Positions 7,274-36,700 of a stretch of 64,000 nucleotides of DNA are shown here, piece by piece. The first letter of the stretch is position 1, and each line of letters starts with the position of its first letter. The DNA lies in NCBI GenBank assembly GCA_025677605.1, contig GCA_025677605.1_4110.1, one strand, 5' to 3'. This DNA is from a phage. The position numbers were made by a program, and so were the translations under genes. The notes beneath the pieces were generated by a model that worked only from the letters and a program-made list of their open reading frames with translations, searched no databases and was not told the origin of the DNA.

Positions 7274-7281
7274 TATTTATA
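7274..7281 (-). promoter_or_regulatory. Candidate late promoter (TATAAATA on minus strand) for scaffold gene
   Basis: Plus strand TATTTATA about 50 nt upstream of the 7224 start codon. Confidence 0.45.
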
Positions 7282-18392: not shown

Positions 18393-19442
18393 TTATAATG
18401 ATCTATAGATTTGTATTAGTAGATTCTTGTCGAACATTGGAGAATCAATTTCCATGATTTGTTGTAAAACTATCTCATCAACTGATTCAGTACTTTCAAA
18501 GTGTTCACCTTCTTCCAAAAGTTCTTTGATACTTTGTTTACTTGTAACAACGTTAAACTCACGAATATTATAAAGTTTAGTAAAAGTATCACGAATAAAA
18601 CTAATCTCATCAGTTGTGATTGGAATATCAACCTGAACTTTCGAGATAGAGTTATCTTGTAAGTAATAACTTGGATCAGTTAGTAGCTCTGACAAAGTAA
18701 ATGTTCTGTATTTCGGTGCAGCATCCCATGATTTGAATGTTGGTTCTGAACCGTGTTCAAGAATCATAACACCTCTAGCATCATCCCATGTGTCTGAGAA
18801 GTTATGAGGGAAACAGTTACCAGTATAAATGACACGAGTTCCTTTGGATGTGAGTTTTGATTGTCGTTTATGGAAATGCCCACTAAAAACATACTCACAA
18901 CCACCAAAAGAACCTTCAGTCTCTTTGCCATGATCTGGCATTTCTACCATTTTGTTAAGCAAATATCCAGGTAATTCAAGATGACCAAATACATATTTGC
19001 TTTGTAATTTAGGTAGCATTTTGTATTCATCTTCAATCATAAATGGAATGAAAGTACAATCGTCGATTGTAGTAATTTCATTAATGAACTCGATGTTTTC
19101 ATAAACTTGTGCCATATTAATACTTGTAATATCGCGTTTGTTTTTATGATACATGTCATGGTTCCCAACTAAGAAGTAAACTTTATCAAAGTTGTCATTT
19201 AGTAATTGGAGAATTTGTAAACCATAGTTTAATGTTTGAATATTAATGTTGCTGCGGTTATGGAAGTAATCTCCCATAAACACACATACTTTAATACCTT
19301 TCTTTTTGGCTTCATCAATCATAAATTTAATGAAGTTCAAACAATCTTCGTTGTGCTGCTTACTGTTATTCTTTAATCCTAAATGAATATCAGTGAATGT
19401 AATTGCTTTATCAAATAGTGCCATCGTCATTTTTCCTTTCAA
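18393..19442 (-). CDS. Recombination nuclease subunit (gp47-like, SbcD/Mre11 family)
   Basis: Calcineurin-like phosphoesterase motifs: DIHLG, GDYFH, GNHD, GHxH (FSGHFHKRQ); immediately upstream of the gp46-like gene. Confidence 0.85.
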   Translation of the reverse strand: MKGKMTMALFDKAITFTDIHLGLKNNSKQHNEDCLNFIKFMIDEAKKKGIKVCVFMGDYFHNRSNINIQTLNYGLQILQLLNDNFDKVYFLVGNHDMYHKNKRDITSINMAQVYENIEFINEITTIDDCTFIPFMIEDEYKMLPKLQSKYVFGHLELPGYLLNKMVEMPDHGKETEGSFGGCEYVFSGHFHKRQSKLTSKGTRVIYTGNCFPHNFSDTWDDARGVMILEHGSEPTFKSWDAAPKYRTFTLSELLTDPSYYLQDNSISKVQVDIPITTDEISFIRDTFTKLYNIREFNVVTSKQSIKELLEEGEHFESTESVDEIVLQQIMEIDSPMFDKNLLIQIYRSL

Positions 19443-20295
19443 TCATATTCATTTCGATTTCAATCTGTCTTGTATGTGATGGTGTAAAACCATGCATCTC
19501 AAGAAGGTCGTCGCGAATGTTACGTACATTCTTCTCACTGTTCAAAATAGAACGGAAGCTATTGTTAACGAATGACGTATAGTATGAGAAAGGATTTAGT
19601 TGGACAGCGGGTTTATCTTTCTTATACAAGATACTCTCTTTAAAGAGAAGTGCATTTTTAACTAATTGTATTCTAGCATCACCCATCATTTCATCCAAAT
19701 ACGTATAATTTCTGTAGTTAGATTTGTGAGAGATCTCTTCTGCTAGTTTAATGAACATTTTACCGAGTTCATTTGTGATTTTACCATGTGTTAAGCAGAA
19801 ATCGCCATCTTCCAAGTCGCCTTTCCAATGTGAACGAACAACTTCATACAGAATACCTTCATTATCAACGATATAATGTTTAAATGGTTCAAAATTCACT
19901 CGTGTATCTGGTGGAATGTGCTCATCAGTGATAACTCGAATCACCACTTCATCCAGTGGTACATCATTTACGAATAGACCGTGCTCATCAGCATATTCCT
20001 TTGCTTTCTTAGCACTCATATTCTCTTTTTCGCGAACACTATCAAGCATTTCATTATTCAAACGTTTGATTCGTGCTGCTTTTGCCTTTTCAAGTAATTC
20101 TTCTGTGATTTCAGACTCATGAAACACAATATAATCATACATACCATAACTTTTATCCAAAAGCCAGCAGTATGATATCTTACTTTTATGTATTTCACGT
20201 AATAAGTCTGCGTTATTCAGATACTTCTTACGCTTCGGCTTGTTTATCATTGTAACTCTCCATGTAATGACCAATAGGCACAATCCGTGTGCCAT
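19411..20295 (-). CDS. Late-transcription sigma factor (gp55-like) with internal insertion; probable start Met at 20250 (MINKPK)
   Basis: N-terminus INKPKRKKYLNNADLLREI vs T4 gp55 TKPKYNYVNNKELLQAI; core LGKMFIKLAEEIS...NYTYLDEMMGDA...NPFSYYTSFVNNSF vs T4 IGLAIMLIAEGLS...SGYTQSWKQEMIADG...NPHAYITQACFNAF (from memory). Confidence 0.7.
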   Translation of the reverse strand: MAHGLCLLVITWRVTMINKPKRKKYLNNADLLREIHKSKISYCWLLDKSYGMYDYIVFHESEITEELLEKAKAARIKRLNNEMLDSVREKENMSAKKAKEYADEHGLFVNDVPLDEVVIRVITDEHIPPDTRVNFEPFKHYIVDNEGILYEVVRSHWKGDLEDGDFCLTHGKITNELGKMFIKLAEEISHKSNYRNYTYLDEMMGDARIQLVKNALLFKESILYKKDKPAVQLNPFSYYTSFVNNSFRSILNSEKNVRNIRDDLLEMHGFTPSHTRQIEIEMNMIERKNDDGTI

Positions 20296-20333: not shown

Positions 20334-20341
20334 TATAAATA
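20334..20341 (+). promoter_or_regulatory. Candidate late promoter (TATAAATA) for the baseplate operon
   Basis: Exact TATAAATA about 34 nt upstream of ATG 20375; divergent from the gp55 promoter. Confidence 0.5.
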
Positions 20342-20347
20342 CTTCAA

Positions 20348-21106
20348 ATGTTTCCTTGTAATGGAGTAACACAAATGATTGATCGTCGAATCCGACTAAG
20401 ACCTAAAGCCGCTGGTGCTAACTATGTGTATGGGGATTTTGGTGACGGAGCCAACCCAACACTACTATCGTTTTTGCGTCCAACCAATGGTTTGGTATGG
20501 ACCGTAACGCCAACAATCACTGAACAAAGAAGTATTCAGTATGAAACACAGTCTCCTGTGCATTCAAATAGTAACTATAACAACTATAAAAATACAAGTA
20601 ATACTATTTTCACGATACAAGGTGAATTTTATGCAAATACTGCTGCTGAAGCTCTATACACTTTAGCATGTATGCATTTTATTCGCTCTGTATCATTGAT
20701 GGATTTTGGTAGAAAAGCTGCATCAGCTAATAACCCCGATTTAGCTGTTCCTGGTGCACCACCACCAATCCTATTACTAAGTGGGTATGGTCGTTATACA
20801 TATAATGATATTCCTGTAGTAATGAAATCATATAATTTTACCTATCCAAATGATGTTTCTTATATTCAAGTACCATTGGATAGTAGTAACAGTACTTTTA
20901 ATTTGTCCGATATGGATAGTAGACAATTTTTTGAACAATTAAGAAGTTCTGGGTACATGAATCCACAAGATGAAGTGTGGGTTCCACAAAAGATATCGGT
21001 AACTATTCAATTAGAAGAGCAACCAACATCAGAATTTATGACTAAGAAGTTTAATCTTAACGCATTTAAGCGTGGTGATATGCTTCGCAATGGAGGATTC
21101 ATTTAA
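20348..21106 (+). CDS. Virion structural protein (baseplate/tail); probable start at 20375 (MIDRR)
   Basis: 252-aa ORF heading the baseplate operon; conserved motif TAATGGAGTAACACA immediately precedes ATG 20375; stop overlaps next start (TAATG). Confidence 0.4.
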   Translation: MFPCNGVTQMIDRRIRLRPKAAGANYVYGDFGDGANPTLLSFLRPTNGLVWTVTPTITEQRSIQYETQSPVHSNSNYNNYKNTSNTIFTIQGEFYANTAAEALYTLACMHFIRSVSLMDFGRKAASANNPDLAVPGAPPPILLLSGYGRYTYNDIPVVMKSYNFTYPNDVSYIQVPLDSSNSTFNLSDMDSRQFFEQLRSSGYMNPQDEVWVPQKISVTIQLEEQPTSEFMTKKFNLNAFKRGDMLRNGGFI

Positions 21107-21420
21107 TGTCAAACTATAGTCAATATTCACCTTATGCAAAAGTTAAACAGACGTGGTATTTGGATTATACCTTACCTCGTGACATAATTCCAGCAGATAC
21201 TGATGATTTTTATGAAATACCTGCAAAGTACAACCACCAACCGTGGCGTTTAGCGTATGAAATGTATGGTAATGAGCGTTTATATTATGTATTCGCCTTA
21301 CTTAATCCTGATTTATTGGGTGAAGACCCGATTTACAACTTTCAAACTGGAATAACTATTAGAGTACCGTCAAGTCAACGCATTCAATCATACCTTAATG
21401 GTACACGCAGTGTAGGTTAA
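21106..21420 (+). CDS. Small baseplate wedge protein (gp53-like)
   Basis: LAYEMYGNERLYYVFALLNPDLLGEDPIYNF resembles the gp53 segment LANAIYGNPQLYWVLLMCNDNYDPYYGW (from memory); directly upstream of the hub gene region. Confidence 0.4.
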   Translation: MSNYSQYSPYAKVKQTWYLDYTLPRDIIPADTDDFYEIPAKYNHQPWRLAYEMYGNERLYYVFALLNPDLLGEDPIYNFQTGITIRVPSSQRIQSYLNGTRSVG

Positions 21421-21431
21421 TGGAGTAACAC

Positions 21432-23582
21432 ATGGATACTAAAATTGGACTAGACCCTAGTCAGAGTAACAAATATGGTGCTAAAGTAAGTAACGTACAA
21501 TCAAAACCAATTCAAAGCACACATACTGATAGAATTTATGACGATAAAAAGATTTCTGATTTTATTATTGACAATGAAAATGTTTTATTAAAATACAATT
21601 CAGCAACGTGGCACTTTACCTTGTTTGCCTTAGATAAAGATGACTTTAAGATGTTCTGGGAAAATCCAGATGCTGAAGTCCAACGTTATGTAATCACTGA
21701 AAGTGGCGTTACTGGTAAGTATAATATCACAAATGTTCAGATGACGCAAGCTGGTCCCTCAACTCCTGGTATGACAACAAACTATACATTTAATACTGCT
21801 TCAATAAGTATGTCAGAAAACAATAGTATGAGTTTTTACGATGAGTTGATATCATTAAGTAATAAACTTCGTTATCATAAATTTATGGATTTACCATTAA
21901 TCCTTGAACTAAAGTTCATTGGTTATAATGAAGATGGTGTTCCTCAAGTCATACCAAACACTACAAAACGTTGGTCAGTGAAGATTAACAACGTTAAAGC
22001 AAGTGCCAGTGCAACTGGTAGTACAATGTTATATACCATTAACTTAGTACACAATCGTGCTGCATTGGTTGATAACGTAGAATGGACATTAAAAGAAACA
22101 TTCTCATGTACTGCTGCACAATTTGGAGCATTTTGTTATGATTTGGAAGATAAGTTAAATGAAATGTCAGAACAACAGTATGGTTATTTGTGTATGAAAT
22201 TTCCAGAACTGGCAGAAGGTAAATTTTTTGAATTTAAAGTTGCACCTGAACTTGCTGATATGTTCATAAACTATGATTCTAAACAAATGACTGAAGTAAC
22301 TTCAACAAAAAATGGTTCACAGGGTTCTAAAAACTTTTCATGGAATCCAAGTACACCAATATCAAGAATAATTGATGATGTTATTGATGCATGTACTGTT
22401 CGTGAAGGTGATAGTACTAGCGTTCGTCAATTTGTTAATATAATCCCACTTAAACAATATGTTGGTTTTGATAATTTACGTAACACATCAGTATATAAAG
22501 TTATTTTTAATATTGTTCGTTTTCGTATTGGTGATGTTGTTCATGAATCCGATTTACAACCAGAAAACTTTAACTTCGAAACGTTCCTAGAAAACTCTGA
22601 ACGTTATCTTGACCCTAGAGATAATGAAGAAAAGTTAAGAATGAAAATATACAATTATCAATTCAGTGGATTGAATAATGAAATATTAGATTTGGATATG
22701 AATTTCGATCAGCAATTTTATGTAGCTACAACACGTAACCCAGGTCCAATACAAGACCAAGGTAACAGAAGTGGTACACATGCATCACAGGAATTAACCA
22801 TACAAGGGGTTCAATATAGTAACCCATTAGATGCGTGGAATAAGACTAGTGATATAAGAAAAGCACGAAGTAAAGGGGAAATTATAACACAAGCTCAAAC
22901 TGCATTACTAAATGAAGTAGATGAGCAATTAAAAAATGCGATGGGTGTGGGTAATCAAGAAGAACAAGATGCTTATATGAATTACAAAGTTCATGTCCTT
23001 CCTGAATACATTGAAGATTATCGTAGTGTATATGAAGAAAATGACATGGGTGCTGATGGAATTGGTGATCGTAGGGGTGAAATATTCACTATACCAACTG
23101 AAGCTACAAACAACCATACAACTTTATCGGCATCTGATAACGATAATAGTAGTACGTATGAAATGGACAGACGTAAAATACGCGACAACTATTATAACCG
23201 TCCATTTATGTGTAAGTTGGATATGCGTGTAATTGGTGACCCATATTGGTTGGGGTGGGGTGATCATGCATATCTTCAATATTTGGATATGTTGGTAAAT
23301 GGTGAAGCATTATATATAAATCCAGAGGATTTCAAATATGCAAATTATATTTCAACTGAAGCATATTTGTTATTGAAATTACAACCAGTTGTTTCTATTA
23401 ATGATAATACTGGTATTTTGGACATAACCACGCCAACCACATTCAACGAAACAATCTATCGCGTAAACAAAATAATTCATGATTTTGGTACAAACGGTAC
23501 TTTCACGCAACAAATTCAAGGTGCTATTGTCGCTCGTGCACTTAAACGTAAAGATAGTATAATAAACCCAGGTGGTGAGTAA
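21432..23582 (+). CDS. Baseplate structural protein (possibly hub-associated)
   Basis: 716-aa ORF, translationally coupled to the gp5-like gene (TAATG overlap); no motif recognised. Confidence 0.4.
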   Translation: MDTKIGLDPSQSNKYGAKVSNVQSKPIQSTHTDRIYDDKKISDFIIDNENVLLKYNSATWHFTLFALDKDDFKMFWENPDAEVQRYVITESGVTGKYNITNVQMTQAGPSTPGMTTNYTFNTASISMSENNSMSFYDELISLSNKLRYHKFMDLPLILELKFIGYNEDGVPQVIPNTTKRWSVKINNVKASASATGSTMLYTINLVHNRAALVDNVEWTLKETFSCTAAQFGAFCYDLEDKLNEMSEQQYGYLCMKFPELAEGKFFEFKVAPELADMFINYDSKQMTEVTSTKNGSQGSKNFSWNPSTPISRIIDDVIDACTVREGDSTSVRQFVNIIPLKQYVGFDNLRNTSVYKVIFNIVRFRIGDVVHESDLQPENFNFETFLENSERYLDPRDNEEKLRMKIYNYQFSGLNNEILDLDMNFDQQFYVATTRNPGPIQDQGNRSGTHASQELTIQGVQYSNPLDAWNKTSDIRKARSKGEIITQAQTALLNEVDEQLKNAMGVGNQEEQDAYMNYKVHVLPEYIEDYRSVYEENDMGADGIGDRRGEIFTIPTEATNNHTTLSASDNDNSSTYEMDRRKIRDNYYNRPFMCKLDMRVIGDPYWLGWGDHAYLQYLDMLVNGEALYINPEDFKYANYISTEAYLLLKLQPVVSINDNTGILDITTPTTFNETIYRVNKIIHDFGTNGTFTQQIQGAIVARALKRKDSIINPGGE

Positions 23583-26245
23583 TGGCAGATACAAGTAAAA
23601 AGTATGCAAAGGAACAGTTGGGTCGTTTTGACCCATCTTATCCACAATTAGCAACCGTTATGGATAACCGTGATCCTACGAAATCTGGTAAGCTAAAAGT
23701 ATGGATACAAGGTTCACAAAGTGATAAAAACTCTAAAGATTCATGGATTGAAGCTTCTTATATGGCTCCGTTTGCTGGCAAAACTCCAGGAATACCGAGT
23801 GCAGATAGTTATGGACAATATCCAAAGGGTTATGGTTTTTGGGCCGTTCCACCAGATGTGGGATGTACTGTTGTTGTTATTTTTGCACAAGCACGTACAT
23901 TCCAAGCTTACTGGATTGGATGTGTTTATGACCAACGTATGAATACAATGGTTCCTGGAATGGCAACTGCGGATACCAATTACAATGGTACTGATATGCC
24001 ATTACCAGTAACTGATTATGATCGTAACACAATCACAACTGACATGCAAGACAAATATATTAACGTTCCTGCTGTTGAAGGATTGAAAAAACAAAACTTA
24101 TTATACGATGATGAAGCAGGTGTTGCAAACCGTAGCAGTACTCGTCAAACAACCAGTACTGTATATGGTATGAGTACACCTCGTGGTAATAGTTTTATTC
24201 TTGATGATGGATATACCGAAGAAGAATTAACCAAACCAACATGGGATCAAGATCCTGATGGATATCAAGACACACAATTTAACAACCCAGTTAATGACAC
24301 GCGTGTTGGTTCCCGTAAGAATGAAGGTATTGTTATTAAAACACGTAGTGGTGCACAACTTCTTATTTCTGAAGCTACTGGTAATGTTTTATTAATTAAC
24401 CGCGACGGTACGGCTCGTATTAAATTCACTGGCGATGGTGATATTGAAATGCACTGTGATAAAAACATAAACATTCGTGCAGGTCAAGATATTAACATGG
24501 TTGCAGGTCGTTCTTATAATATTGAAAGTGGGCAAGACTTCAATACTCGTGTTGGTGGAAATACCAAACTGGAATTGGTCGGTAATTTGGATGCTAAGGT
24601 CAATGGTCAGGTTGTAATTAATTCTGGTGCTGATCTTCGTTTGGTTACTGGTGCTTCATTACGTCTTCAAAGTGGTAGCAGTACTGATATTACGGCTGGG
24701 TCAACTGCATCTATTAAAGGTTCATCCTCTGCAAACGTTATTGGTGGTTCATCCGTTAACATTAGTGGTGGTGGTCAAAACCTAACAGTTGATAGTTCAG
24801 GTAATAGTGGTAGTGCTGCATTCATGGCTCCTGACTTCAAAACTCCATCAGTGGGTCTTAATGACCACATTCATATGATTGCTAACTGGAAAGATGCAGA
24901 AAACCACGGTGATAGGGTTGATCCTGGTATAAGTGGTGGTGGTCAAGGTAGTACGACATCTCCGGTTGAACCACAACCAGCTAACGATGTTAAACCAACA
25001 CTAGCAGAACAACAAGAAACTGAAGCAGTTCAATTTGTAAACTATGCTCCAGAGACGAGTGAAGTTCAAACGCAAGATTTAATGGCGGCTGAGCCTGGAA
25101 TGACTGGTTATTCACAGACGTTTGAAGGTTTGCATATGCTTATGCCATGTAGTGGTACTATACGCCAGAATGGATATTGGGGTAAAGGTGTAACAACCGA
25201 AAATGGAACCAAGCGTGATAGTAGTGGGTGGGAAATTCAAGCCCGTGGTAGTGTGGTTGCACCAGACGGTGGTATTGTTGGTATCAGTGGTGATGCTATT
25301 ATTGTTGAGCATAAATCTGGTTATAAATCGGTTTTCTATGGTTTAACTTCTGACCTATTCAATAAAGATGTTGTTGAAAAAGGGCAAGTGATAGGAACTG
25401 CCAATGGAATACTTCGATTTGAAATAAGAGTTCGATCATCTAATATCTATGGTTTTAGTGGTTCAGTCGATCCTGGGTTATTCTACACAACTGTAACTGG
25501 TCAGGGTTCTGCTGCTGCGAATAAAACATTAATTGGGGGCCAACCATCAACACAAAATAATCCTAAAGATGTGGTCAGACCATCTGCTGATAGTGATGAA
25601 TTGGTAATATCAACTCGCATACGAACTATTGGAACTGGTTATTCACAACGTGGTTCTCGTCATGTTCCTCGTCGTAGAGAACGTAAGCCTCGAAATGCAG
25701 GAACCGCTCCAAAAGTTGAACAAAATTATAATGTAGGTAATGTTGATAAAACTGCCGTTGGATGGAAAGTTGCTCCGGGTGATTCCCAATTTATATCAGA
25801 ACTTAAAGAACACGAAGGTACTATCCAATATCAAACAGCACTTGGATATTTCAGAAATGGAAAATTCTGGCGTTATATTGATAGCCGTGGATTCCCTACA
25901 ATTGGATATGGACACCTTATTGTCGGAGGTGAAGATTTTTCTGGTGGTATAACTGAAGCAGAAGCTGAAGCAATGTTAGTACGAGACAGTACGCAAGCAA
26001 TTAATGATGCCAAATCAATATATGCGGCATGGGATTTAAAAACACCTGTTATTGCTCAACAAGTACTATGTCAAATGGTATTCCAAATGGGCAAATACAA
26101 AGTTCAAAAATTCAAAGGTATGCTTGGATGTTTAGCTAAAGGTGATTATCGTGGTGCTGCTGCTCATATACGTAGTTCAGCTTGGTATCGTCAAACAACT
26201 CGTCGTGCAGAGTTAATGGCACGTAGAATTGAGGCATGTCAATAA
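23582..26245 (+). CDS. Baseplate central spike/hub protein (gp5/VgrG-like) with M23/LytM-like and C-terminal T4-lysozyme-like domains
   Basis: N-terminus DNRDPTKSGKLKVWIQGS resembles gp5 OB-fold start (…DPKLSGRVRVRVVG…); repetitive beta-helix ~24540-24800; M23-like segment ~25170-25470; C-terminal 160 aa (YxDSxGxxTIGYGHL, MVFQMG, SAWYRQT) is T4-lysozyme-like. Confidence 0.75.
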   Translation: MADTSKKYAKEQLGRFDPSYPQLATVMDNRDPTKSGKLKVWIQGSQSDKNSKDSWIEASYMAPFAGKTPGIPSADSYGQYPKGYGFWAVPPDVGCTVVVIFAQARTFQAYWIGCVYDQRMNTMVPGMATADTNYNGTDMPLPVTDYDRNTITTDMQDKYINVPAVEGLKKQNLLYDDEAGVANRSSTRQTTSTVYGMSTPRGNSFILDDGYTEEELTKPTWDQDPDGYQDTQFNNPVNDTRVGSRKNEGIVIKTRSGAQLLISEATGNVLLINRDGTARIKFTGDGDIEMHCDKNINIRAGQDINMVAGRSYNIESGQDFNTRVGGNTKLELVGNLDAKVNGQVVINSGADLRLVTGASLRLQSGSSTDITAGSTASIKGSSSANVIGGSSVNISGGGQNLTVDSSGNSGSAAFMAPDFKTPSVGLNDHIHMIANWKDAENHGDRVDPGISGGGQGSTTSPVEPQPANDVKPTLAEQQETEAVQFVNYAPETSEVQTQDLMAAEPGMTGYSQTFEGLHMLMPCSGTIRQNGYWGKGVTTENGTKRDSSGWEIQARGSVVAPDGGIVGISGDAIIVEHKSGYKSVFYGLTSDLFNKDVVEKGQVIGTANGILRFEIRVRSSNIYGFSGSVDPGLFYTTVTGQGSAAANKTLIGGQPSTQNNPKDVVRPSADSDELVISTRIRTIGTGYSQRGSRHVPRRRERKPRNAGTAPKVEQNYNVGNVDKTAVGWKVAPGDSQFISELKEHEGTIQYQTALGYFRNGKFWRYIDSRGFPTIGYGHLIVGGEDFSGGITEAEAEAMLVRDSTQAINDAKSIYAAWDLKTPVIAQQVLCQMVFQMGKYKVQKFKGMLGCLAKGDYRGAAAHIRSSAWYRQTTRRAELMARRIEACQ

Positions 26246-26248
26246 ATA
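26241..26248 (+). promoter_or_regulatory. Candidate late promoter (AATAAATA) for endolysin gene
   Basis: ATAAATA core ~32 nt upstream of ATG 26280; a second copy at 26257-26264. Confidence 0.35.
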
Positions 26249-26279
26249 TTTTATCCAATAAATATTATAGGAGAAGTAT

Positions 26280-26768
26280 ATGAGTAAATGGGAAATTAAA
26301 CCTGATGATGCACAGTATTTGAAAGAAATTAAAGAGTTTGAAGGTACTATTGCTTTCCAAACTAAATTAGGTTATTTCAAGAATGGTAAATTCAGAGTTT
26401 ATAAAGATAGCCTAGGACTAGATACCATTGGATATGGTCACTTAGTACTAAAAGGTGAAAATTTCAGTGCAGGGCTAACGGAAGCTGAAGCTGAAGCATT
26501 ACTTCAAAAAGATTCCCTAAATGCATACAGAGAAGCAAAAGAGATTTACGATCAATTCGGAATGACTGCACCTATTCAAGTACAACGTGTACTTTGGATG
26601 ATGGTATTCCAAATGGGTAAATCTCGTGTATTGAACTTTAAGAAAGCAATGGCAGCATTGGGACGTGGTGATTATAAAACCGCTGGCAAAGAAATGCGTG
26701 ATTCCGCTTGGTATCGTCAAACAACTTCTCGTGCTGAAAAAATGGCAAGGATTGTTGAATCCGTATAA
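26280..26768 (+). CDS. Endolysin, T4 lysozyme (gene e)-like muramidase
   Basis: YKDSLGLDTIGYGHL, MVFQMGKSRV, DSAWYRQTTSRAEKMA match T4 lysozyme motifs (YKDTEGYYTIGIGHL, MVFQMGETGV, SRWYNQTPNRAKRV); catalytic Glu in EFEG context; 162 aa. Confidence 0.85.
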   Translation: MSKWEIKPDDAQYLKEIKEFEGTIAFQTKLGYFKNGKFRVYKDSLGLDTIGYGHLVLKGENFSAGLTEAEAEALLQKDSLNAYREAKEIYDQFGMTAPIQVQRVLWMMVFQMGKSRVLNFKKAMAALGRGDYKTAGKEMRDSAWYRQTTSRAEKMARIVESV

Positions 26769-26781
26769 ATGAGGAAAGTCT

Positions 26782-27177
26782 ATGGCAATAGTTTTTAAAG
26801 GTTTCTCTACTCCTGTTGTGGGTAAAACACAAACTCTGTATGATGCTGAGTTGGTGAGACAGGATTTGATGAACCACTTCAATACAAAGAAAGGTGAAAG
26901 AGCATTTGATGCTGATTATGGTTTCATTGCTTGGGATTTGATTTTTGAACTTGATGGTTATAATACAAAAAATCTTTTAGAAGCTGACGCTCGTAGAATT
27001 ATTTCATTAGACCCACGTTTGAATTTAAAAAATCTAACAGTTAGTAATGTTGAATATGGTTATCGTTTGGATATAATTTTAGAGTATGTAATGCTTGATA
27101 AATTAGAACAACTAACTATAGTGTTTGATGCCAGAAGTAATAATAGAATGGCGACATTCACAACATCTAAATTATAA
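26782..27177 (+). CDS. Baseplate wedge protein (gp25-like)
   Basis: 131 aa (T4 gp25 is 132 aa); KGERAFDADYGFIAWDLIFE vs T4 gp25 KGSRPFDPEFGCDLSDQLFE (from memory). Confidence 0.75.
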   Translation: MAIVFKGFSTPVVGKTQTLYDAELVRQDLMNHFNTKKGERAFDADYGFIAWDLIFELDGYNTKNLLEADARRIISLDPRLNLKNLTVSNVEYGYRLDIILEYVMLDKLEQLTIVFDARSNNRMATFTTSKL

Positions 27178-27276: not shown

Positions 27277-30200
27277 ATGTCACAACAAAAAAGACAATCT
27301 AATTTATACGCGGGGGAAGACTGGACCCAGGTATATGAAAGTTTCTATAAAATAAATCTGACGGCTTATGACTTCGATACTATACGTCAAAGTATGATTG
27401 ATTATTTGCGTCAAACATATCCTGATTCATTCAATGACTGGATTGAGAATGACCAGTTTATCTTCATTTTAGATACCATTGCGATGCTTGGACAAAACTT
27501 AGCATTTCGTATGGATTTAAACACGCGTGAAAACTTCCTAGATACTGCTAGTCGTCGTGCATCTGTACTTAAATTAGCTAAAATGATCTCATATTCACCT
27601 CGTCGTGCATATCCAGGGCGAGCAACAGCAAAACTAACTGAAATTAAAACTAACCAAGACGTTCGCAACAGCTATAACGAATCTCTTAAAGATAAAATTA
27701 TCCGTTGGAATGACCCAATGGACTCTAACTGGTATGAAAACTTTATCCTGGTGATGAATAGTGCATTTGTCAGTACTAACCAGTTTGGTAATCCAGTAAA
27801 ACGTTTAGATATTAATGGTGTGTCTCGTCATTTGTATAGAATGAACACTTTACCTATGTCTGCACCTAATTTACCATTCACCGCAACAGTAAATGGTGAA
27901 TCGATGACATTTGAAGTCGTAAACCCAGATATTAACGTTATTGGTGTTGATGAAAGACACCCTGAGCCACAAGAACAGAAATATATTGTGTATCAGAATG
28001 ATGGTAATGGTTTTAGTTCACCTAATACTGGATTCTTTGTCTATTTTATTCAAGGAACATTACAATATCAAGATTTCCAATACGATGTAAGACAAGAAAA
28101 CCGTATTCAGGATATAAACGTAGACAATATTAACGAAACTGACGTATGGGTACAGGAAATCACTGAAGATGGTATAGTTCGTACTAAATGGACTAAGGTT
28201 CCATCGATGGAAAGTATCGCATATAACACAGTAACACGCCAACTTAAAACAATTTATGCGGTAACTACTCGTGATCGTGACCAAATCAGTATTAAGTTCC
28301 CTGATTCACGTAGTGGTGTTGTTCCACGTGGTACATATCGCGTTTGGTATCGTGTTAGTAATGGCGAAACATACAACATCAAAACTGCTGACATTCAAAA
28401 CAAAAGTGTTAAGTACATTTACAGAACTAAATCACAATCTAACTATGAGAATAGTACATTAGATATTAAATTTAGTTTACAATTTGAATCAGACCGTGCA
28501 CAAAGTGCAGAAACCCTTGAACAAATTAAAGCTCGTGCACCACAAATGTATTATACTCAAAACCGTTTTGTGAATGGTGAAGATTATAACATTGCTCCGT
28601 TGAGTCAAGGTAATGCAGTACTGAAATCTAAAGCGATTAACCGAATTTACAGTGGGCAATCACGATTTATTGACATAAATGACCCAACTGGTAAGTATCA
28701 AAACACTGATGTGTTTAGTGATGATGGTGCAATGTACAAAAATGTCACCAAATACAATAAATCTGTTAATTTACCAAGTACTAAATCTAATTCTAGTATT
28801 GTTATCGATGATATACAACCATTAATTGGTGAAAACGCTGTTATTCAGAAGTATCAAGCATATCCACAGAATACAGTACGTGTTGAATTACAACAAAACT
28901 GGGTTCCATCATATAGTTCAAGCTATGCAACTAATACATATGGTCGTATTATTGGGGCAACTGGTACAATTTATGGTGATTATAAAGTTGGTACATTAAT
29001 TAAATTCGGTAGTAGTTCAAATAATATCGTATGGGCTAGTATTGTTAGCGTGTTACCTAACGGTTTTTATGTTCTAAGTACGCCGATTTCTTCCTCTATG
29101 CAGATTCAGGAGTACATTAGCCCATATAGAACTCGTTTCAACACAGTTGAAGTACAAAATATTGCTGCAATGTTAGATAAGAAAACTAACTTTATTCTAA
29201 TTTATGATATTGTATCCACTACATGGGTTCCTTTGGAAATGACAACCACTAGTGATACTATAACATACAATGGTTCGTTAGTACAGGTGATGGTTAACAT
29301 CCAATACACTGCTGAAACATGGGAATTTGATTCCAATGGTGTTGAGTATGTATTTGTTGGTGGAGAAAAAGTTCGTTTTTACTTTGTAAGCTCTAAGAAA
29401 ATCACTGATATTAGTTCTGGTTCAGTGCAAAGTGATAAAATTGAGATTCTTTCATCAAACTCTACCAGTACTAGTAACGTGGGTCTAACCAATAACATTG
29501 ATTTCCAGATTCTGGATACAATAAAACAAGAAAATGGTTATTTGGATGGTTCAAGAGTTGTAATTACATCAGAAAGTATGGATAGTAATGGTATTCCATT
29601 AAATCCTAACCAATTCCAATCTATTGTTCCTGATTGGACAGGTGAAGATTCTAGAAAATATGGTGGTATATTGGTATTTCAACAAAATGAAGATTTTACT
29701 ATTTCTTCATTGACATTACCAAATTCATCATTCACTATCATGGATTCAACATGGAATTACACAATGGATCAGGCATTAGCAGAAACTAATGCGTACAAGA
29801 GACAAGAATTCATTCGTAATAATGAAATTCGCTCAACTACACTGAGTGAACTATATAGTAAAGGTACTGGTTTTATTATTGCATTCCAATACGAAGGTCA
29901 ATATTACTTCATCGAACAAACAGTTGGTAATAACAATGACCGTTTGGGTGTTCTAATTCAGAACATGACTGAAGTTACAGACCCAAGTGCGGCTACTCCA
30001 GAAACTGCTTTCTATCGTTGTATTAAAAACATGGGTACAAGTGTTGACGCTAATAAAAAGCTTAATTATTATGGTTATAAGGATATTACATCTGAACTTA
30101 CTATAAAAACTAATGCTAGAACGTCTATTAACTTCCACTGGAAGCATTATGCACCAGATGATAATCGAATCGACCCAAGCAGAACCAACTTAATTGATAT

Positions 30201-30741
30201 GTATGTTTTAACAAACTCATATAAGACAGAAGTTGATATTTGGTTGAAGAATGGTGCTAAAGGTGATATGCCTAAACCACCAACATCGGTTGAATTACAA
30301 GATATCTTCAAGGATGTTGAGAAGAAAACTGTAATTAGTGATAGTTTGATATGGCACAGTGCTGAATATTTGCCTTTATTTGGTAATAGTGCAGCACCGG
30401 ATTATAAAGCTGATTTCAAAGTAGTGAAATTACCTAATAGTACAATGAGTGATGATGAAATTCGTCAAAATATTGTTTCATTAACTAACCAGTACTTTGC
30501 AGTTGAGAACTGGGATTTTGGTGAAAGTTTCTATTATACTGACTTGTGTACGTACCTTCATACCCAACTTGGTAGACACATTAGTACTGTTGTAATTGTA
30601 GCTCAAAACCCTAATTCTAAGTTTGGTTCATTGTTTGAGATACCTTCAAGACCTGACCAAATATTCATTAGTACTGCTACCGTTGATAACGTACAAATCG
30701 TTAACTCTCTAGCTAAAAGTAATATTAATATTGGTTTTTAA
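27277..30741 (+). CDS. Baseplate wedge protein (gp6-like, baseplate-J family), enlarged
   Basis: 1154 aa; N-terminal region (DFDTIRQSMIDYLRQTYPDSFNDW...) resembles baseplate-J/gp6; follows gp25-like gene as in T4-like phages. Confidence 0.55.
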   Translation: MSQQKRQSNLYAGEDWTQVYESFYKINLTAYDFDTIRQSMIDYLRQTYPDSFNDWIENDQFIFILDTIAMLGQNLAFRMDLNTRENFLDTASRRASVLKLAKMISYSPRRAYPGRATAKLTEIKTNQDVRNSYNESLKDKIIRWNDPMDSNWYENFILVMNSAFVSTNQFGNPVKRLDINGVSRHLYRMNTLPMSAPNLPFTATVNGESMTFEVVNPDINVIGVDERHPEPQEQKYIVYQNDGNGFSSPNTGFFVYFIQGTLQYQDFQYDVRQENRIQDINVDNINETDVWVQEITEDGIVRTKWTKVPSMESIAYNTVTRQLKTIYAVTTRDRDQISIKFPDSRSGVVPRGTYRVWYRVSNGETYNIKTADIQNKSVKYIYRTKSQSNYENSTLDIKFSLQFESDRAQSAETLEQIKARAPQMYYTQNRFVNGEDYNIAPLSQGNAVLKSKAINRIYSGQSRFIDINDPTGKYQNTDVFSDDGAMYKNVTKYNKSVNLPSTKSNSSIVIDDIQPLIGENAVIQKYQAYPQNTVRVELQQNWVPSYSSSYATNTYGRIIGATGTIYGDYKVGTLIKFGSSSNNIVWASIVSVLPNGFYVLSTPISSSMQIQEYISPYRTRFNTVEVQNIAAMLDKKTNFILIYDIVSTTWVPLEMTTTSDTITYNGSLVQVMVNIQYTAETWEFDSNGVEYVFVGGEKVRFYFVSSKKITDISSGSVQSDKIEILSSNSTSTSNVGLTNNIDFQILDTIKQENGYLDGSRVVITSESMDSNGIPLNPNQFQSIVPDWTGEDSRKYGGILVFQQNEDFTISSLTLPNSSFTIMDSTWNYTMDQALAETNAYKRQEFIRNNEIRSTTLSELYSKGTGFIIAFQYEGQYYFIEQTVGNNNDRLGVLIQNMTEVTDPSAATPETAFYRCIKNMGTSVDANKKLNYYGYKDITSELTIKTNARTSINFHWKHYAPDDNRIDPSRTNLIDMYVLTNSYKTEVDIWLKNGAKGDMPKPPTSVELQDIFKDVEKKTVISDSLIWHSAEYLPLFGNSAAPDYKADFKVVKLPNSTMSDDEIRQNIVSLTNQYFAVENWDFGESFYYTDLCTYLHTQLGRHISTVVIVAQNPNSKFGSLFEIPSRPDQIFISTATVDNVQIVNSLAKSNINIGF

Positions 30742-30792: not shown

Positions 30793-33700
30793 ATGAATGA
30801 ACGAATTTATGGAGTCCTATACATGACTAATAATTTTAAGTTTCTACCAACTAAAACGGCAGAAGCAGTACAACAGAAGCTTTTCATTAAAAGATTACCT
30901 GAATGGATGCAAGGCTTAGAAGACATTCAAAAGGTTAGTGATGATGTAATTCAACAATGGTTCAATCCAGCGGATAATGAAATCGTTGATGGATATATTG
31001 GTGATATGGGTTCTCCTGCTGCATCTGCTAAGATTTTCCTTGACGAAGCAACCGTTGAACGTCAGCTATATCAATTATCAACAGCATATGTGTCTCGTAA
31101 TGATGACACAAGCATTCGTTCGCTTCAATTTTATGATGATTTGGTTGGCTACATGGAACACTACGGCACGTTAACTTCAAACGAGAGCCGTCTATTTTCT
31201 GGTAAGTTCTATTCTTGGACACCACCAATTAACCCAAACAAAATGACCAACTACAGTTCCTATTTGTGGGATAGTAAAAATAGTTATGGTATCACAACTC
31301 CTGACTTTATTGTTATGGAACGTGGTGCTGATAACGGAAACACATGGTCCCTACAGAACTTTTGGTATACTATTGGTCAAACACTAGAAGATGGAACAGT
31401 ACTAACTGCTGACATGACACAAGATACTCGTTTTATTCGTGCACAAGCACCAATCATCGAGTACAATAAAAATATCGAATTAATTAACTACGGGACACAT
31501 TTCCGTGGTGTTGTGGATCTTTTCTCTGATACAATTAAACCAGAAGATATCGTCCAAAAAGACGTAAATGATGGTATTCGTATTGACGGGATTATTCCAC
31601 AAGATGGTATGCGTATTCTTTTCACTAGTATAGGTAACGTTGGTGAAAACAACCGCATTTATAAAGTTTTTATTAAGAAAATGCAAGATGGTTCTCGCAC
31701 ATATGGTCTAGCATTGGACCCAGATGAAGAAACTGACGACCGCCCAAGTGGTGAGCCACATAATGGTGATGTTATTTTGGTGCGTGATGGTAATGTATAT
31801 AAAAATACATCCATGTATTGGAATGGTGTTAACTGGATTAGAGCACAAACAAAATCTGGTGTAAACGTATTCCCACAATTCCAACTATATGACCGTGATG
31901 GTGTTAAATTAAATGATTCTACAATTTATCCATCAAGTAACTTTGTTGGTTCATCCCTATTTGGTTTTAAAATCAACTATAATTACGGCACTGATAAAGT
32001 ATATGGTTATAACATCGAACTAGGTAATTATAATTACTATATGTACGAAAACTTCCTACAAAGTGTTCGTTATACATATGATCATTTGGGTGTTGAAACT
32101 GAAATTTCTGGATTGTACTACTATAACGTAGTTGGTAAAGATAATGAACTACACCTTAAGACCGATTGGGTTCGTTCTAAGGAAGATTCAAAGCAATTCG
32201 TTAAACAAACGCCACAAATCGAACACACTGATATGTATCGTGTATTCAATACCGTATTCGAAATGGAAAACTTTAAAAATCCATTAGAAGGTATGTATGC
32301 ATATGTTACTGAAGTGGATCGTACCTATCAATATTACAAAGAAGAACGTCAAACCTATATGGATTGGCATGTAATTAGTGGTGAAGGTATTCAAAGTGAA
32401 CGTTTCAATCGCACATTTGAATTAGCCCAGAAAATTATTGATGGTAAGAGTACTGAAATCATTGAAATTCAAGTTGATGGTGTGGATGTAACCGATTATA
32501 CACGTCATGTATATAATAACAAGGTTCAAAGCATCACTTTAGGTGAAGATGTAGCTCTTAAAGATGAATCAGTGATTCAAATTAGAACATACAGCAGTAC
32601 TGAAGTACCAAATAAAGAGTTGGGTGCATATGAAATCCCAATCAACTTACAAAATAACCCATACAACGATAATATTCTTTATATCAACCAAAGTAATTTT
32701 ACATTACATTTTAAAGATATCATTCAAAAGAATATCACCAGTGGTTCCGTTGATGATTTCAACGACTACGAAGATCGTTTGTCTAAAGGTTTAGTGGATA
32801 ACTCCGTTGGTACTAAGATTATTCAAAACGAAGCATCAATGCTACCGTTAATGGCACATTCTGCAAATGAAGATATTGACCTATTTGAATCTGTATTGTT
32901 TATGCAATCCGAATATTTCCGTTTCGTAAACAAGTTCAATACACAAATGATCCGTTTGTACAATGAGAACCCAGCAAACTTCTTAGCTAATAATGCTTCT
33001 AATATTGTTGATGAAATTCTAACAATTATTAATATGGGTCATGATAATACTTTCCCATTCTATTATGATAACGTAGCAAGTACTTCTGGCTTCATTCGTG
33101 CGTTTGTACCACCAACTCCACAGTTTTTGGGTATTTTGAAAGCACACGTTCCAGAAAAAGCAACATTTTTGAATGCTGGTAGTAAGCAAAGCTGTTATAA
33201 CATCAGTCATACAGGTGCAATCACTAAAGCATACCGTGTAATAAACGGTGTTGATAAAATGGATGACGTTATATATGAGTTAGAAAATAGAATTTTCAAT
33301 AGTATTGATGTTATTTTCAAAGATGAAGATTACCAACCTAAGCTAGATGCTTCTGATCTTTTCCCAACTCCGTATTACAGAGATACAGAGTATAATGACG
33401 AAGAGAAAAAGAACTTACTACTACGTGGTTATATTAATTTCATCGCAACCAATGGTATCAGTAACAGTTCACATGATTATGATCCAAATAACTGGATGAC
33501 TTGGAACTATACTGGAACACATTATATGGTTAATGGTCAACAAACACAAATAGCAGCCCGTGGTTCATGGCGAGCAATCTACACTGACCAATTTGGTACA
33601 TATCGCCCAGCAACCCATCCGTGGGAAATGTTTGGTTTCTCCCAACGTCCAGTTTGGTGGAACCAGGAATATGAACCTACCGCAGTTCAAGTTGGCGAAC

Positions 33701-36700
33701 GTGATGGTGATGTTGTTTATGTATATGAGGCATTAGTTATCAACGAACAAGGTAACATGGTTCCTAGTGGGTTATGGGACGTTGGTAACGAGAAAGGTGA
33801 TAGCTCAACGGGTACTATCTTGTTTGGTGCACGTAAAGGTCAATATGACAAGTACAAACGTTTTGGTACACAACCATTTAAGATCACTAAAACAGGCAAG
33901 CAGACAGCATCTGGTGTTGATATTTGCGTCATTGAGTACATTGCTCCTGAAGTTTTAGGTCTTGTATATGGTAGTCTAAATCATCGTGCTGAACCGTGGA
34001 CTTATGGTGATATGGGTGATATGGAATTCACTTATATGAACACAGCAATGTTTGCATATGATGAATTATTGATGTTATTCAAAGCTAAACCTGCACAGTT
34101 CACAAACTATTTCTGGGATACCCGAAATAATACATTAAAAACTGTATCTGGTAATGAACCACAGTTTTTATATGGTGATACTCGTTTACGTTTGAACTTT
34201 AATAGTGATACAATCGTACATGGTGAGAATAGTACTCGCGTTATTGGTTATCAAATGATTGTTAGTGATTATTTGATGTATCAAAACAAAAATATTACAA
34301 CTAAGTACGGTGAAATTGTTCGTTCTTCTCATATTAATGTGGGTCATAAACTAGGTGGATTCACTAAAGCTGACCAATTAACATTTACATCAGAAGCAAC
34401 TGGTCTAATTTCACAAGAAAACCAATCTATCGGTTTAGTTCGTTCTAATAATATTAGAAATGAGCAAATGAGTGCAATTAAAATTACTTGGACTGGTAGT
34501 GCTTACCAAATTGATGGTTATGATTTAGTTTCTGCAACATTCAATTATAAATTGCCTGTTAAAAACGGTCATAAAGTATCTTTGAAAGTTGATAATCGTA
34601 ATGTTGTTCATTATAATGAGTGGAAAAATGATGCATCCATTCCTTACGGAACTTTGATGAATACCTTCCAGGAAGTTTACACATTTATTTGTGGTTATGG
34701 TGAGTATCTAAAGCAACATGGTTGGATTTTTGAAGAAGTTGATGAATCTGGTATCCAACAGGACTGGAATACAATTGCAAAAGACTTTTTAATCTGGAGT
34801 CAACAACAATTGAGTACTGGTGAATTCATTTCTTGTACCCCATCAGCAATTAATGCTAAATTTGGTACAGATTTTGGTTCAGTTCAGTCAATTGCACAAA
34901 ATAGTGGTGGTGTTTGGTCATTATTAGATGATTCAAACCAAGGTATACGTCAATTTGAGATTGAAACATCTCGTATTGGTAACATATTCACGGTAAGAAC
35001 TACTGAAGAATCAAATAAACGCATGGCACTTATTCGTTTAAGTATCAGTTCTTATGAACATGCTGTTATTTTTGATGATCAGACTATTTTCGGTGATTAT
35101 ATCTATGAACCAACCTATGGTGCAGTTCAAGAATTGATTAAATTGTATGGATATATCACTGGTTCATGGTCTGGACGTTTACAAGCTCCTGGATTTATCA
35201 TCCTAGAAGCTGGGACATTACCATCATTTGAAACTTTGGTGTCTAATTTCCAACATTATTATGATAATGAAACCCCAGTTAGTGATGTTCAATTAAATGA
35301 ACTTTCAAACCACTTAATTGGCTATCAGTCTCGTGATTACTTACAACGTATGATCACTAATGAGCCTGGTCGAATTGATTTCTATAAAGGTTTTATTCAT
35401 GATAAAGGCACTAACCAAGTACTAGAAAAAGTATTACGTGTATCTAAATCATATAATACTGATGAGTATAAAGCATTACAAGAATGGGCATTCCGTGTTG
35501 GTTCTTATGGTAACATTGATGGTGTTAAAAATCTTCAATTTAAACTAATTAATAATGAGTTTAAACAACAACCACAAATGATTACGTTCGACCGTTATTC
35601 CGATAAGGTTGAATCTGAGAATGAAATTGTATATTATGGTGAAATTGGTGAAGATTCACGCTGGATTAGTCGTCCAAAAGGTAAATTCTCATTCCCTATG
35701 CGTAATGGGAGAAGTGAGAATATCCAATTACCTAATATTGGACCAGTAACCCTAGATGAAATTGATTATACCACATTAAATTACGAAACTGCAAATCAAG
35801 ACCGCATTAGTTATATGAATAATTCTGGTAAAATCCCAACATCTGTTTGGATGTTCCAAGATATCAATAACGAATGGAATGTGTATGATTTAGTAGATAC
35901 TGGTATTACAATGGTTTCTATTACACCAATTGAAAGTGAAGATCCATATGCTGAGCAATATTGTAAAGTACTATTGTCTGATGATATCCCACTCAATGAT
36001 GGTGATTATTATTATTTTGTTGATGAAACAAACTTTATGCCTGATGCCCTACGTGATGAATGCCAATACTACACTTCTGGACTAGATCCAAAAGTTATGG
36101 TAGTGCCATTTGACACTTCCATTACTATTGACTTTTCAACAGTAGAATCAGCACCACGTTTGTATCGTTATGTTAGTAGATTTAGTACTCAACAAGAACG
36201 CGATGAATATATTGCTAAAAAATATAGTTACAGTGCACCTGAAAGCACTTTGTTTGACCGTCCTACTACGTATGATGAAAGAACAAACATTACTGCATTG
36301 TATTTGAATGTGTTTGACCCAATTAACGGTGTTATTCCTGGGGTTGCAATGCAAGATGTTGATTTCATCTCTCCAGTGGACCCAGCACAGTATAGCAGTA
36401 ACGGTGAACTATTACAAGCATGGGGTGCTGAAAAGGTAGGTAAAGTGTGGTGGAACACTAGCACTGCATTCTATCTGGATTATACCCGTCCAATCTTTGA
36501 TGAGGATGGTAACGTTGATGTAAAAGCAACTAATGAATATAAGCGTTATAATTGGGGTAAATTATTACCACACAGTGTTATTGATGTTCTAGAATGGGTT
36601 AGTTCACCAGTAGAACCATACAACTGGGAAAAATATTGTGCAGAACAAGCCAATAAAAATAAAAACAATACTATGTATCTCCCAAGTGGGATTGCAATGG

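Follow-up and report, generated by a model that had tools for sequence, protein, structure and literature searches.

The locus examined here raises the question of how the central spike of a jumbo phage is organised when its lysozyme stands elsewhere than in T4 gp5, and of what the second lysozyme gene next to it is for. It lies in a 64,000-nucleotide stretch of phage DNA (the window; contig GCA_025677605.1_4110.1 of assembly GCA_025677605.1), in which the gene of a central spike / tail-lysozyme (hub) protein of 887 amino acids (aa) at 23582-26245 (+), recognised from its open reading frame (ORF), its Pfam and PHROG matches and an AlphaFold2 (AF2) model, is followed by the gene of a free GH24 lysozyme of 162 aa at 26280-26768 (+), recognised from its ORF, its Pfam match and its identity to a domain of the hub; both ORFs have the boundaries given for them in an earlier reading of the sequence, hereafter the original prediction. 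Since the DNA of the window is 98.2% identical to that of Escherichia phage A4 (Asteriusvirus), its source is a Rak2-like jumbo myovirus; 121Q, PBECO4, phAPEC6 and G17 show ~ 77% DNA identity to the window.

The spike layout is real but already described for the RaK2 and CBB phages, which the original prediction had overlooked. The RaK2 paper of 2013 noted for gp078 a "very unusual domain composition" that includes a beta-helix and, at the C-terminus, a lysozyme (PMC3622015), and the CBB paper of 2017 described CBB_240 with an OB domain, a possible central M23 domain, a C-terminal lysozyme and a T4-type lysozyme next door (PMC5259590). Confirmation of a published annotation in a well-sampled phage group would carry little weight alone. 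The additions made here are a LytM domain that is dead yet conserved, an internal HxH motif, the age and polarity of the lysozyme duplication, and a third GH24 paralog that is set against the "endolysin" label of the neighbouring gene; degenerate M23, invariant HxH and duplication age are absent from those two papers.

Domain organisation of the spike protein

We put at about 0.78 the probability that the 887-aa protein forms, as a trimer, the central spike of a Rak2-like jumbo myovirus (Asteriusvirus), a spike built from an OB fold, a conserved core, a beta-helix and an HxH motif, and carrying a LytM and a lysozyme domain as cargo. The protein is 100% identical to database protein P0001, a PHROG match spans its full length, its AF2 model has a mean predicted local distance difference test (pLDDT) of 84.3, and every domain is backed by profile searches and by fold searches on AlphaFold models. 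Its homologs comprise ~ 87 full-length hubs at 35 to 100% identity, all of the same length; alignment and a check of the domain order were done on 34 of them, at 35-80% identity, and the order is the same in these 34, to which all conservation values below refer.

The N-terminal OB fold (aa 23-116, 23648..23929; all hub features are on the + strand) is recognised by Pfam Phage_base_V at 29.4 bits for a cutoff of 23.8, as expected of a central spike of the gp5/VgrG type. It is followed by a conserved core (aa 119-285, 23936..24436), which leads into the beta-helix and is the most conserved part of the hub, with 63% mean pairwise identity and many invariant residues. This core occupies the spot of the lysozyme in T4 gp5, and neither Pfam nor PDB sequence searches gave a lysozyme signal in it. 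The repetitive beta-helix itself (aa ~ 286-415, 24437..24826) is modelled with a pLDDT of 85-92. DUF2345, the VgrG-type beta-helix family, scores 30.4 bits at aa 280-321, just under its cutoff of 30.7, and aa 283-389 align weakly to the beta-helix in 9f4a, the central spike of phage KP1; in distant hub relatives Gp5_trimer_C and DUF2345 matches are found. Mean pairwise identity of the helix is 37%.

Beyond the helix stand a degenerate LytM domain (aa ~ 518-636, 25133..25489), placed by profile and fold searches, and a C-terminal T4-type GH24 lysozyme domain (aa 728-887, 25763..26245). The order proposed in the original prediction, namely OB fold, beta-helix, M23-like domain and C-terminal GH24, unlike that of T4 gp5, was thus borne out by Pfam, PDB sequence searches and AF2, and its DNA ranges, which translate into aa ~ 530-630 for the M23-like domain and ~ 730-887 for the lysozyme, match the profile placements. 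The alternative of a lysozyme internal to the helix region, between OB fold and helix as in T4 gp5, was also checked and does not hold, the GH24 domain of the hub lying after the helix.

The context is that of a spike as well: the neighbours of the gene are gp53-like, gp25-like and gp6-like baseplate proteins, and hub orthologs were found in virions by mass spectrometry, namely phAPEC6 gp241 (PMC7247149) and CBB_240 (PMC5259590). More distant spikes keep the OB fold and the beta-helix, while their C-terminal enzyme is a GH24, a GH19, an M15 (Peptidase_M15_4) or a Phage_lysozyme2 domain. Since these C-terminal enzymes are swapped, an enzyme placed past the helix is a general design.

An invariant histidine pair inside the chain

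Just past the beta-helix, the alignment of the homologs displays the motif H429-x-H431 (24866..24874), of which both histidines are invariant (34/34). An HxH cage in which iron (Fe) is held between three chains is diagnostic of P2 gpV-type apex domains, and HxH also serves trimeric fibres as a register clamp (bioRxiv 10.1101/2023.02.25.529910). A conserved HxH past the helix is thus present as in spikes of the P2 gpV type, while its position near the C-terminus, where it would form the tip, is not: 456 residues separate it from the end of the hub, and therefore it is not a terminal apex. H429 and H431 are a candidate inter-chain metal (Fe) histidine cage, which would clamp the chains where the needle ends and three tethers emerge.

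The HxH motif was not found in the more distant spikes carrying other cargo. Many of the metagenomic spikes P0088-P0120 close their helix with (E/Q)IH(M/L/F)NG, without HxH.

The hub lysozyme and its free paralog

The C-terminal domain of the hub matches Pfam Phage_lysozyme at aa 765-882 with 34.9 bits (cutoff 22.3), and both the hub copy and the free copy exceed a curated GH24 profile cutoff and have the corresponding fold; among NCBIfam models an endolysin match was obtained below threshold only. Residues E11, D20 and T26 of T4 lysozyme (T4L) correspond to E745, D767 and T773 in the hub and to E21, D43 and T49 in the free copy, and the two copies share an insertion of ~ 13 residues between Glu and Asp. 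Judged by its triad, the hub lysozyme appears to be an intact T4-type enzyme.

In the hubs P0015, P0019, P0077, P0078, P0085 and P0087, Ile, Cys, Val or Asp stands in place of the Thr26 equivalent; in P0087 the Asp20 equivalent is missing as well, and the alignment leaves the Glu11 position of this hub uncertain. The P0077 lineage also has a free lysozyme, and P0078 is the sister of P0077. Some lineages may have an inactive hub lysozyme.

The original prediction had put the neighbouring lysozyme at 55-60% identity to the hub domain, and the two align without gaps over 159 residues with 87 identities (55%, E 2e-66). Their nucleotide alignment, which had been proposed as a check, gives 61% identity, with 48% at third codon positions and a longest identical run of 21 nt. 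Given these last two values, the duplication is old and no recent gene conversion has taken place; a recent duplication or conversion of the lysozymes was rejected on the same grounds.

The order hub, free lysozyme, gp25, gp6-like gene is kept in A4, CBB, GAP32, XaC1 and one metagenomic lineage. RaK2 has it too, but there four small ORFs are inserted between hub and free lysozyme, and hence these two are numbered 078 and 073; the insert (L003:2391-3884) consists of the hypothetical ORF074-077, two of them on the opposite strand. In relatives at 35-45% identity gp25 lies directly 3' of the hub and there is no free lysozyme, and the free gene was therefore added later beside the 3' end of the hub.

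Neighbour-joining trees of the lysozymes (162 columns, 300 bootstraps) have a poorly resolved backbone. Among the free copies, that of the window pairs with its own hub domain in 0/300 bootstraps, those of five phages show a tendency to cluster (40-60% bootstrap), and the holin-adjacent endolysin of the T5-like phage AAS21 (48% identical) nests together with one free copy among the hub domains. An old tandem duplication would be the simplest reading of the origin of the free lysozyme; horizontal acquisition is possible, given the AAS21 endolysin nesting among hub domains.

Is the free lysozyme the endolysin?

The free lysozyme gene starts 34 bp past the hub stop, ends 13 bp before gp25 and has an AGGAG ribosome-binding site. 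No holin or spanin is found near it and its surroundings are those of a late baseplate operon, so that it does not belong to a recognisable lysis cassette. Furthermore, phage A4 has three GH24 loci. The third paralog, phAPEC6 gp293 (L002:36100-37026, - strand), has an N-terminal membrane anchor resembling a signal-arrest-release (SAR) segment, a LysM-like segment and a lysozyme of the same subfamily. This anchor-LysM-GH24 protein is found in 71 Rak2-like records (phAPEC6 and 70 others), is located in phage A4 beyond the part covered by the window, and was put forward by the CBB authors as the endolysin (PMC5259590). Given the third paralog and the location in the baseplate operon, the "endolysin" label of the 162-aa neighbour is unproven.

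According to the original prediction, the 162-aa protein would be the lytic endolysin and the hub domain the injected copy, both arising from an intragenomic duplication. The paralogy on which this rests is true, the duplication behind it is old, and the free endolysin is the part that was not established. Several observations speak for it: the protein has no N-terminal hydrophobic, signal or membrane segment in its sequence, as in T4 gene e; purified LysUE1, its ortholog, is muralytic in vitro (PMC12805682); its orthologs were undetected in the virions of phAPEC6 (PMC7247149) and CBB (PMC5259590); its nearest outside relatives, 48-49% identical, are lysozymes encoded next to a holin in the siphoviruses AAS21 (T5-like) and KEY; and a gene added beside the hub 3' end is what tandem duplication would give. 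However, the gene sits inside a baseplate operon away from any holin or spanin, the anchor-LysM paralog is a published endolysin candidate present in those 71 records, and the tree, with a T5-like endolysin and one free copy among hub domains, is poorly resolved. On balance, we hold this reading at somewhat under an even bet.

A second reading takes the free lysozyme as a low-copy accessory of the baseplate or hub, or as an assembly factor, which would act with the spike in trans and would not be the lysis enzyme. The gene order, kept across Asteriusvirus, Alcyoneusvirus, Mimasvirus, XaC1 and one metagenomic lineage, is consistent with it, as are the tight spacing on both sides, a late promoter probably common with the operon and the presence of a separate, better endolysin candidate. 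Against it, the protein escaped virion mass spectrometry in two phages, though three copies per virion could go undetected, and several related phages have no free lysozyme; we consider it unlikely. For practical purposes the existence of three GH24 paralogs means that LysUE1, which is under development as an "endolysin", may not be a lysis enzyme.

A degenerate LytM domain between helix and lysozyme

The M23-like domain is less readily recognised than the lysozyme. Pfam Peptidase_M23 scores 21.8 bits at aa 555-608, under its cutoff of 28.7, and a single-sequence PDB search with the middle region of the hub gave no match, so that a profile of the family had to be used. Built from aa 472-702 of 23 homologs, it matched, among solved chains, SpoIIQ and LasA with E 1.1e-6 and DipM with 1.5e-4, as well as the further M23/LytM chains zoocin A, TagE, ShyA and EnvC. 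In addition, in an AF2 model of the segment, whose core has a pLDDT >90, the 50 best Foldseek matches are all of the M23/LytM type.

HMMER alignments to enzymes of solved structure served to locate the catalytic positions. In the hub, S547...E551 stands at the place of the HxxxD zinc motif (R...I in most homologs) and G588 at that of the catalytic His of "YxH", while the HxH zinc pair, which is not to be confused with H429-x-H431, aligns with I610 and R612, directly before the conserved F-E-I-R616. The substitution that the original prediction had read here (I610-L-R612 before F-E-I-R616) is therefore as it described. None of the 34 homologs (0/34) conserves a His or Asp at the LytM zinc-binding and catalytic positions. 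Hence the M23/LytM fold is present while the zinc ligands and the catalytic His are absent.

The domain is nevertheless about as conserved as the lysozyme (48% and 51% mean pairwise identity, respectively), and the scaffold residues W550, H577, G580, R616, G624, G627, D630, P631, G632 and F634 are invariant. Since a dead active site goes together with a conservation close to that of the lysozyme, this is a LytM domain of the degenerate kind found in EnvC, DipM and SpoIIQ; as judged from the alignments, it is under purifying selection and catalytically dead family-wide. In a library-wide profile search at E <1e-30, this LytM subfamily was retrieved only in seven cluster representatives, all of them hubs of 870-984 aa in which GH24 always adjoins it, and below them come generic M23 proteins. 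Our literature search found no paper on a degenerate LytM domain in a phage spike. The domain that had been annotated as a possible peptidase is thus dead and conserved, and what deserves to be tested is binding or regulation, not proteolysis.

The conservation of the LytM domain therefore indicates a non-catalytic job. Here the original prediction, which had suggested a non-catalytic binding module, was right on the first point, the substitutions extending to all 34 homologs; binding is one interpretation, and a regulatory or structural role fits equally.

A regulatory role would liken the domain to EnvC, NlpD and DipM: it would gate the tethered lysozyme, or activate host amidases or lytic transglycosylases at the entry site. 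DipM stimulates lytic transglycosylases and AmiC, and the title of its PDB entry calls it a coordinator of autolysins. Strong conservation despite the dead active site and the restriction of the subfamily to hubs in which GH24 always adjoins also argue for regulation. On the other hand, the spikes P0088 and P0093 have a C-terminal GH24 without LytM, so the lysozyme is not generally dependent on it, and a regulator strikes us as rather unlikely. Still less likely is the combined picture of a spike whose metal-clamped needle end is internal, with an EnvC/NlpD/DipM-like regulatory LytM module beyond it. If true, it would mean that LytM keeps the lysozyme silent until delivery, or that the spike is a virion-borne hijacker of host cell-wall hydrolase control.

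That the domain instead cleaves peptidoglycan as an active endopeptidase, so that the spike would carry two enzymes as phi29 gp13 does, has for it the M23 fold and the CBB annotation as a possible M23 peptidase (PMC5259590), but this is extremely improbable and was rejected, the zinc and catalytic positions reading Ser, Glu, Gly, Ile and Arg in the hub and varying across the 34 homologs, and the Pfam score lying under the gathering cutoff.

Proposed anatomy and mechanism

In the anatomy that we favour, with the hub as a central spike carrying its cargo past the needle, the OB fold and core (aa 1-285) would dock the spike under the tail tube and hub, residues ~ 286-415 would form the piercing beta-helix, and HxH 429-431 would probably clamp the three chains at the helix end. 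From there, a Gly/Ser/Pro-rich tether would carry two cargo domains per chain, the dead LytM domain (~ 518-636) and the T4-type lysozyme (728-887). Upon sheath contraction the spike would cross the outer membrane and the tethered lysozyme would cut the peptidoglycan locally, allowing the tube to reach the inner membrane. The LytM-like domain, being non-catalytic, would most plausibly hold the enzyme on the sacculus, or else gate the lysozyme. The free 162-aa lysozyme would be a soluble muramidase expressed from the late baseplate operon, and is not needed to explain the spike.

Several points weigh against this anatomy. The trimeric state is one that we infer, the AF2 model of the hub being a monomer, and trimer, HxH cage and cargo placement remain proposals. 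The RaK2 ortholog gp078 was undetected by virion mass spectrometry (PMC3622015), and the detections of the phAPEC6 and CBB orthologs in virions would not place the C-terminal half on the mature spike. Moreover, an HxH located 456 residues from the C-terminus is atypical of an apex domain, and the T4L Thr26 equivalent is replaced in several hub homologs.

Two segments of the chain call for a remark. Between the LytM-like and lysozyme domains lies a basic, low-confidence linker (aa 690-715, 25649..25726; ...RGSRHVPRRRERKPRNAG...), with a pLDDT <50 at aa 703-715 and conserved G691, S692 and P696; it shows a conserved QRGSxxxPRR motif followed by the very basic RRRERKPR. Speculatively, it might serve as a flexible tether or as a processing site. 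Upstream of the LytM domain, aa 473-505 (24995-25100), a strand and a helix, have a pLDDT of ~ 81-85 in the full-length model, which falls to <50 in a model limited to this segment and the LytM domain; it seems, therefore, that AF2 packs the segment against the N-terminal or the helix part, and through it the hub chain could fold back along the needle.

Genome setting

The operon opens with a 252-aa structural protein (20348-21106, +; from the ORF list), followed by a gp53-like protein of 104 aa (21106-21420, +), a baseplate neighbour by Pfam and PHROG, and by a 716-aa virion structural protein (21432-23582, +; phrog_11190) directly 5' of the hub, which overlaps the hub ATG by one base (23582). 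Pfam and PDB sequence searches with the 716-aa protein gave no match; its ortholog phAPEC6 gp240 was seen in virions by mass spectrometry (PMC7247149), and by its gene position only it is a candidate for the gp27-like hub partner. Downstream of the free lysozyme come a gp25-like baseplate wedge protein (26782-27177, +; Pfam GPW_gp25 36.6 bits, phrog_43) and a gp6-like wedge protein of 1154 aa (27277-30741, +; Pfam and PHROG). Directly 3' of the wedge gene lies a giant ORF of 3335 aa (30793-40800, +), annotated in phage A4 only as "structural protein"; its ortholog phAPEC6 gp245 (382 kDa) is present in virions.

Seven bp 5' of the first baseplate-operon gene (ORF 20348) stands TATAAATA (20334..20341, +), the T4-type late-promoter consensus, next to an annotated gene of a gp55-like late sigma factor (19411-20295, -). 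Over the window as a whole the motif shows no enrichment (4 matches, 9.1 expected by chance), and only its position before the operon is suggestive; this position suggests a promoter role of TATAAATA at 20334 for the baseplate operon. The other three matches, at 2879-2886, 7274-7281 and 11075-11082 (-), are likewise located 5' of ORF starts, at least two of them at a short distance.

Comparison with known systems

The closest systems are the hubs of Rak2-like phages, namely RaK2 gp078, CBB_240, GAP32_234, phAPEC6 gp241 and A4_584. These orthologs are 58-100% identical and agree in length, domain order and operon.

T4 has a paralog pair consisting of the spike-borne gp5 lysozyme and the soluble gene e lysozyme. 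Here the paralog adjoins the hub inside the baseplate operon, while that of T4 is elsewhere in the genome. The hub resembles T4 gp5 in uniting OB fold, GH24 lysozyme and beta-helix within a single spike protein, with the GH24 fold and triad in common, but the order in T4 gp5 is OB fold, lysozyme and helix, whereas here it is OB fold, core, helix, HxH, dead LytM and lysozyme. T4 gp5 has neither LytM nor HxH and is capped by the PAAR protein gp5.4 (bioRxiv 10.1101/2023.02.25.529910).

With the P2 gpV and phi92 gp138 spikes the hub shares the OB fold, the beta-helix and a conserved HxH past the helix. In P2 gpV, however, the HxH is ~ 12 residues from the C-terminus and forms the tip, while in the hub it is followed by 456 residues with two folded domains.

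The dead LytM domain shares with EnvC, NlpD, DipM, SpoIIQ and Csd2, which are among its best structural matches, an M23 fold without metal ligands. Factors of the EnvC type work through protein or peptidoglycan interaction, not catalysis, and are bacterial periplasmic or membrane proteins, whereas here the domain, to which a lysozyme is fused, belongs to a virion spike. Domains with the M23 fold occur commonly in proteins of phage entry, such as Tal proteins, tape measures and the ejection protein of cyanophage A4. In phi29 gp13 a lysozyme-like domain is combined with an M23 domain that is active, unlike the LytM-like domain of the hub, which is dead.

Evolved VgrG proteins, for example VgrG-3 of V. 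cholerae, carry a C-terminal peptidoglycan hydrolase. Like them, the hub has a gp5-like OB fold and beta-helix (DUF2345 being the VgrG C-terminal family) followed by enzymatic cargo delivered from a contractile machine. They differ in that in VgrG, a bacterial carrier of effectors, a gp27-like part is fused at the N-terminus, whereas here a separate gene encodes the partner and the wall attacked is that of the phage's own host. Functionally, the layout of the hub is closest to cargo-carrying VgrG spikes, not to T4 gp5, and the internal HxH together with the swappable C-terminal enzymes of its relatives shows that many phage spikes are built like a cargo-carrying VgrG and unlike T4 gp5.

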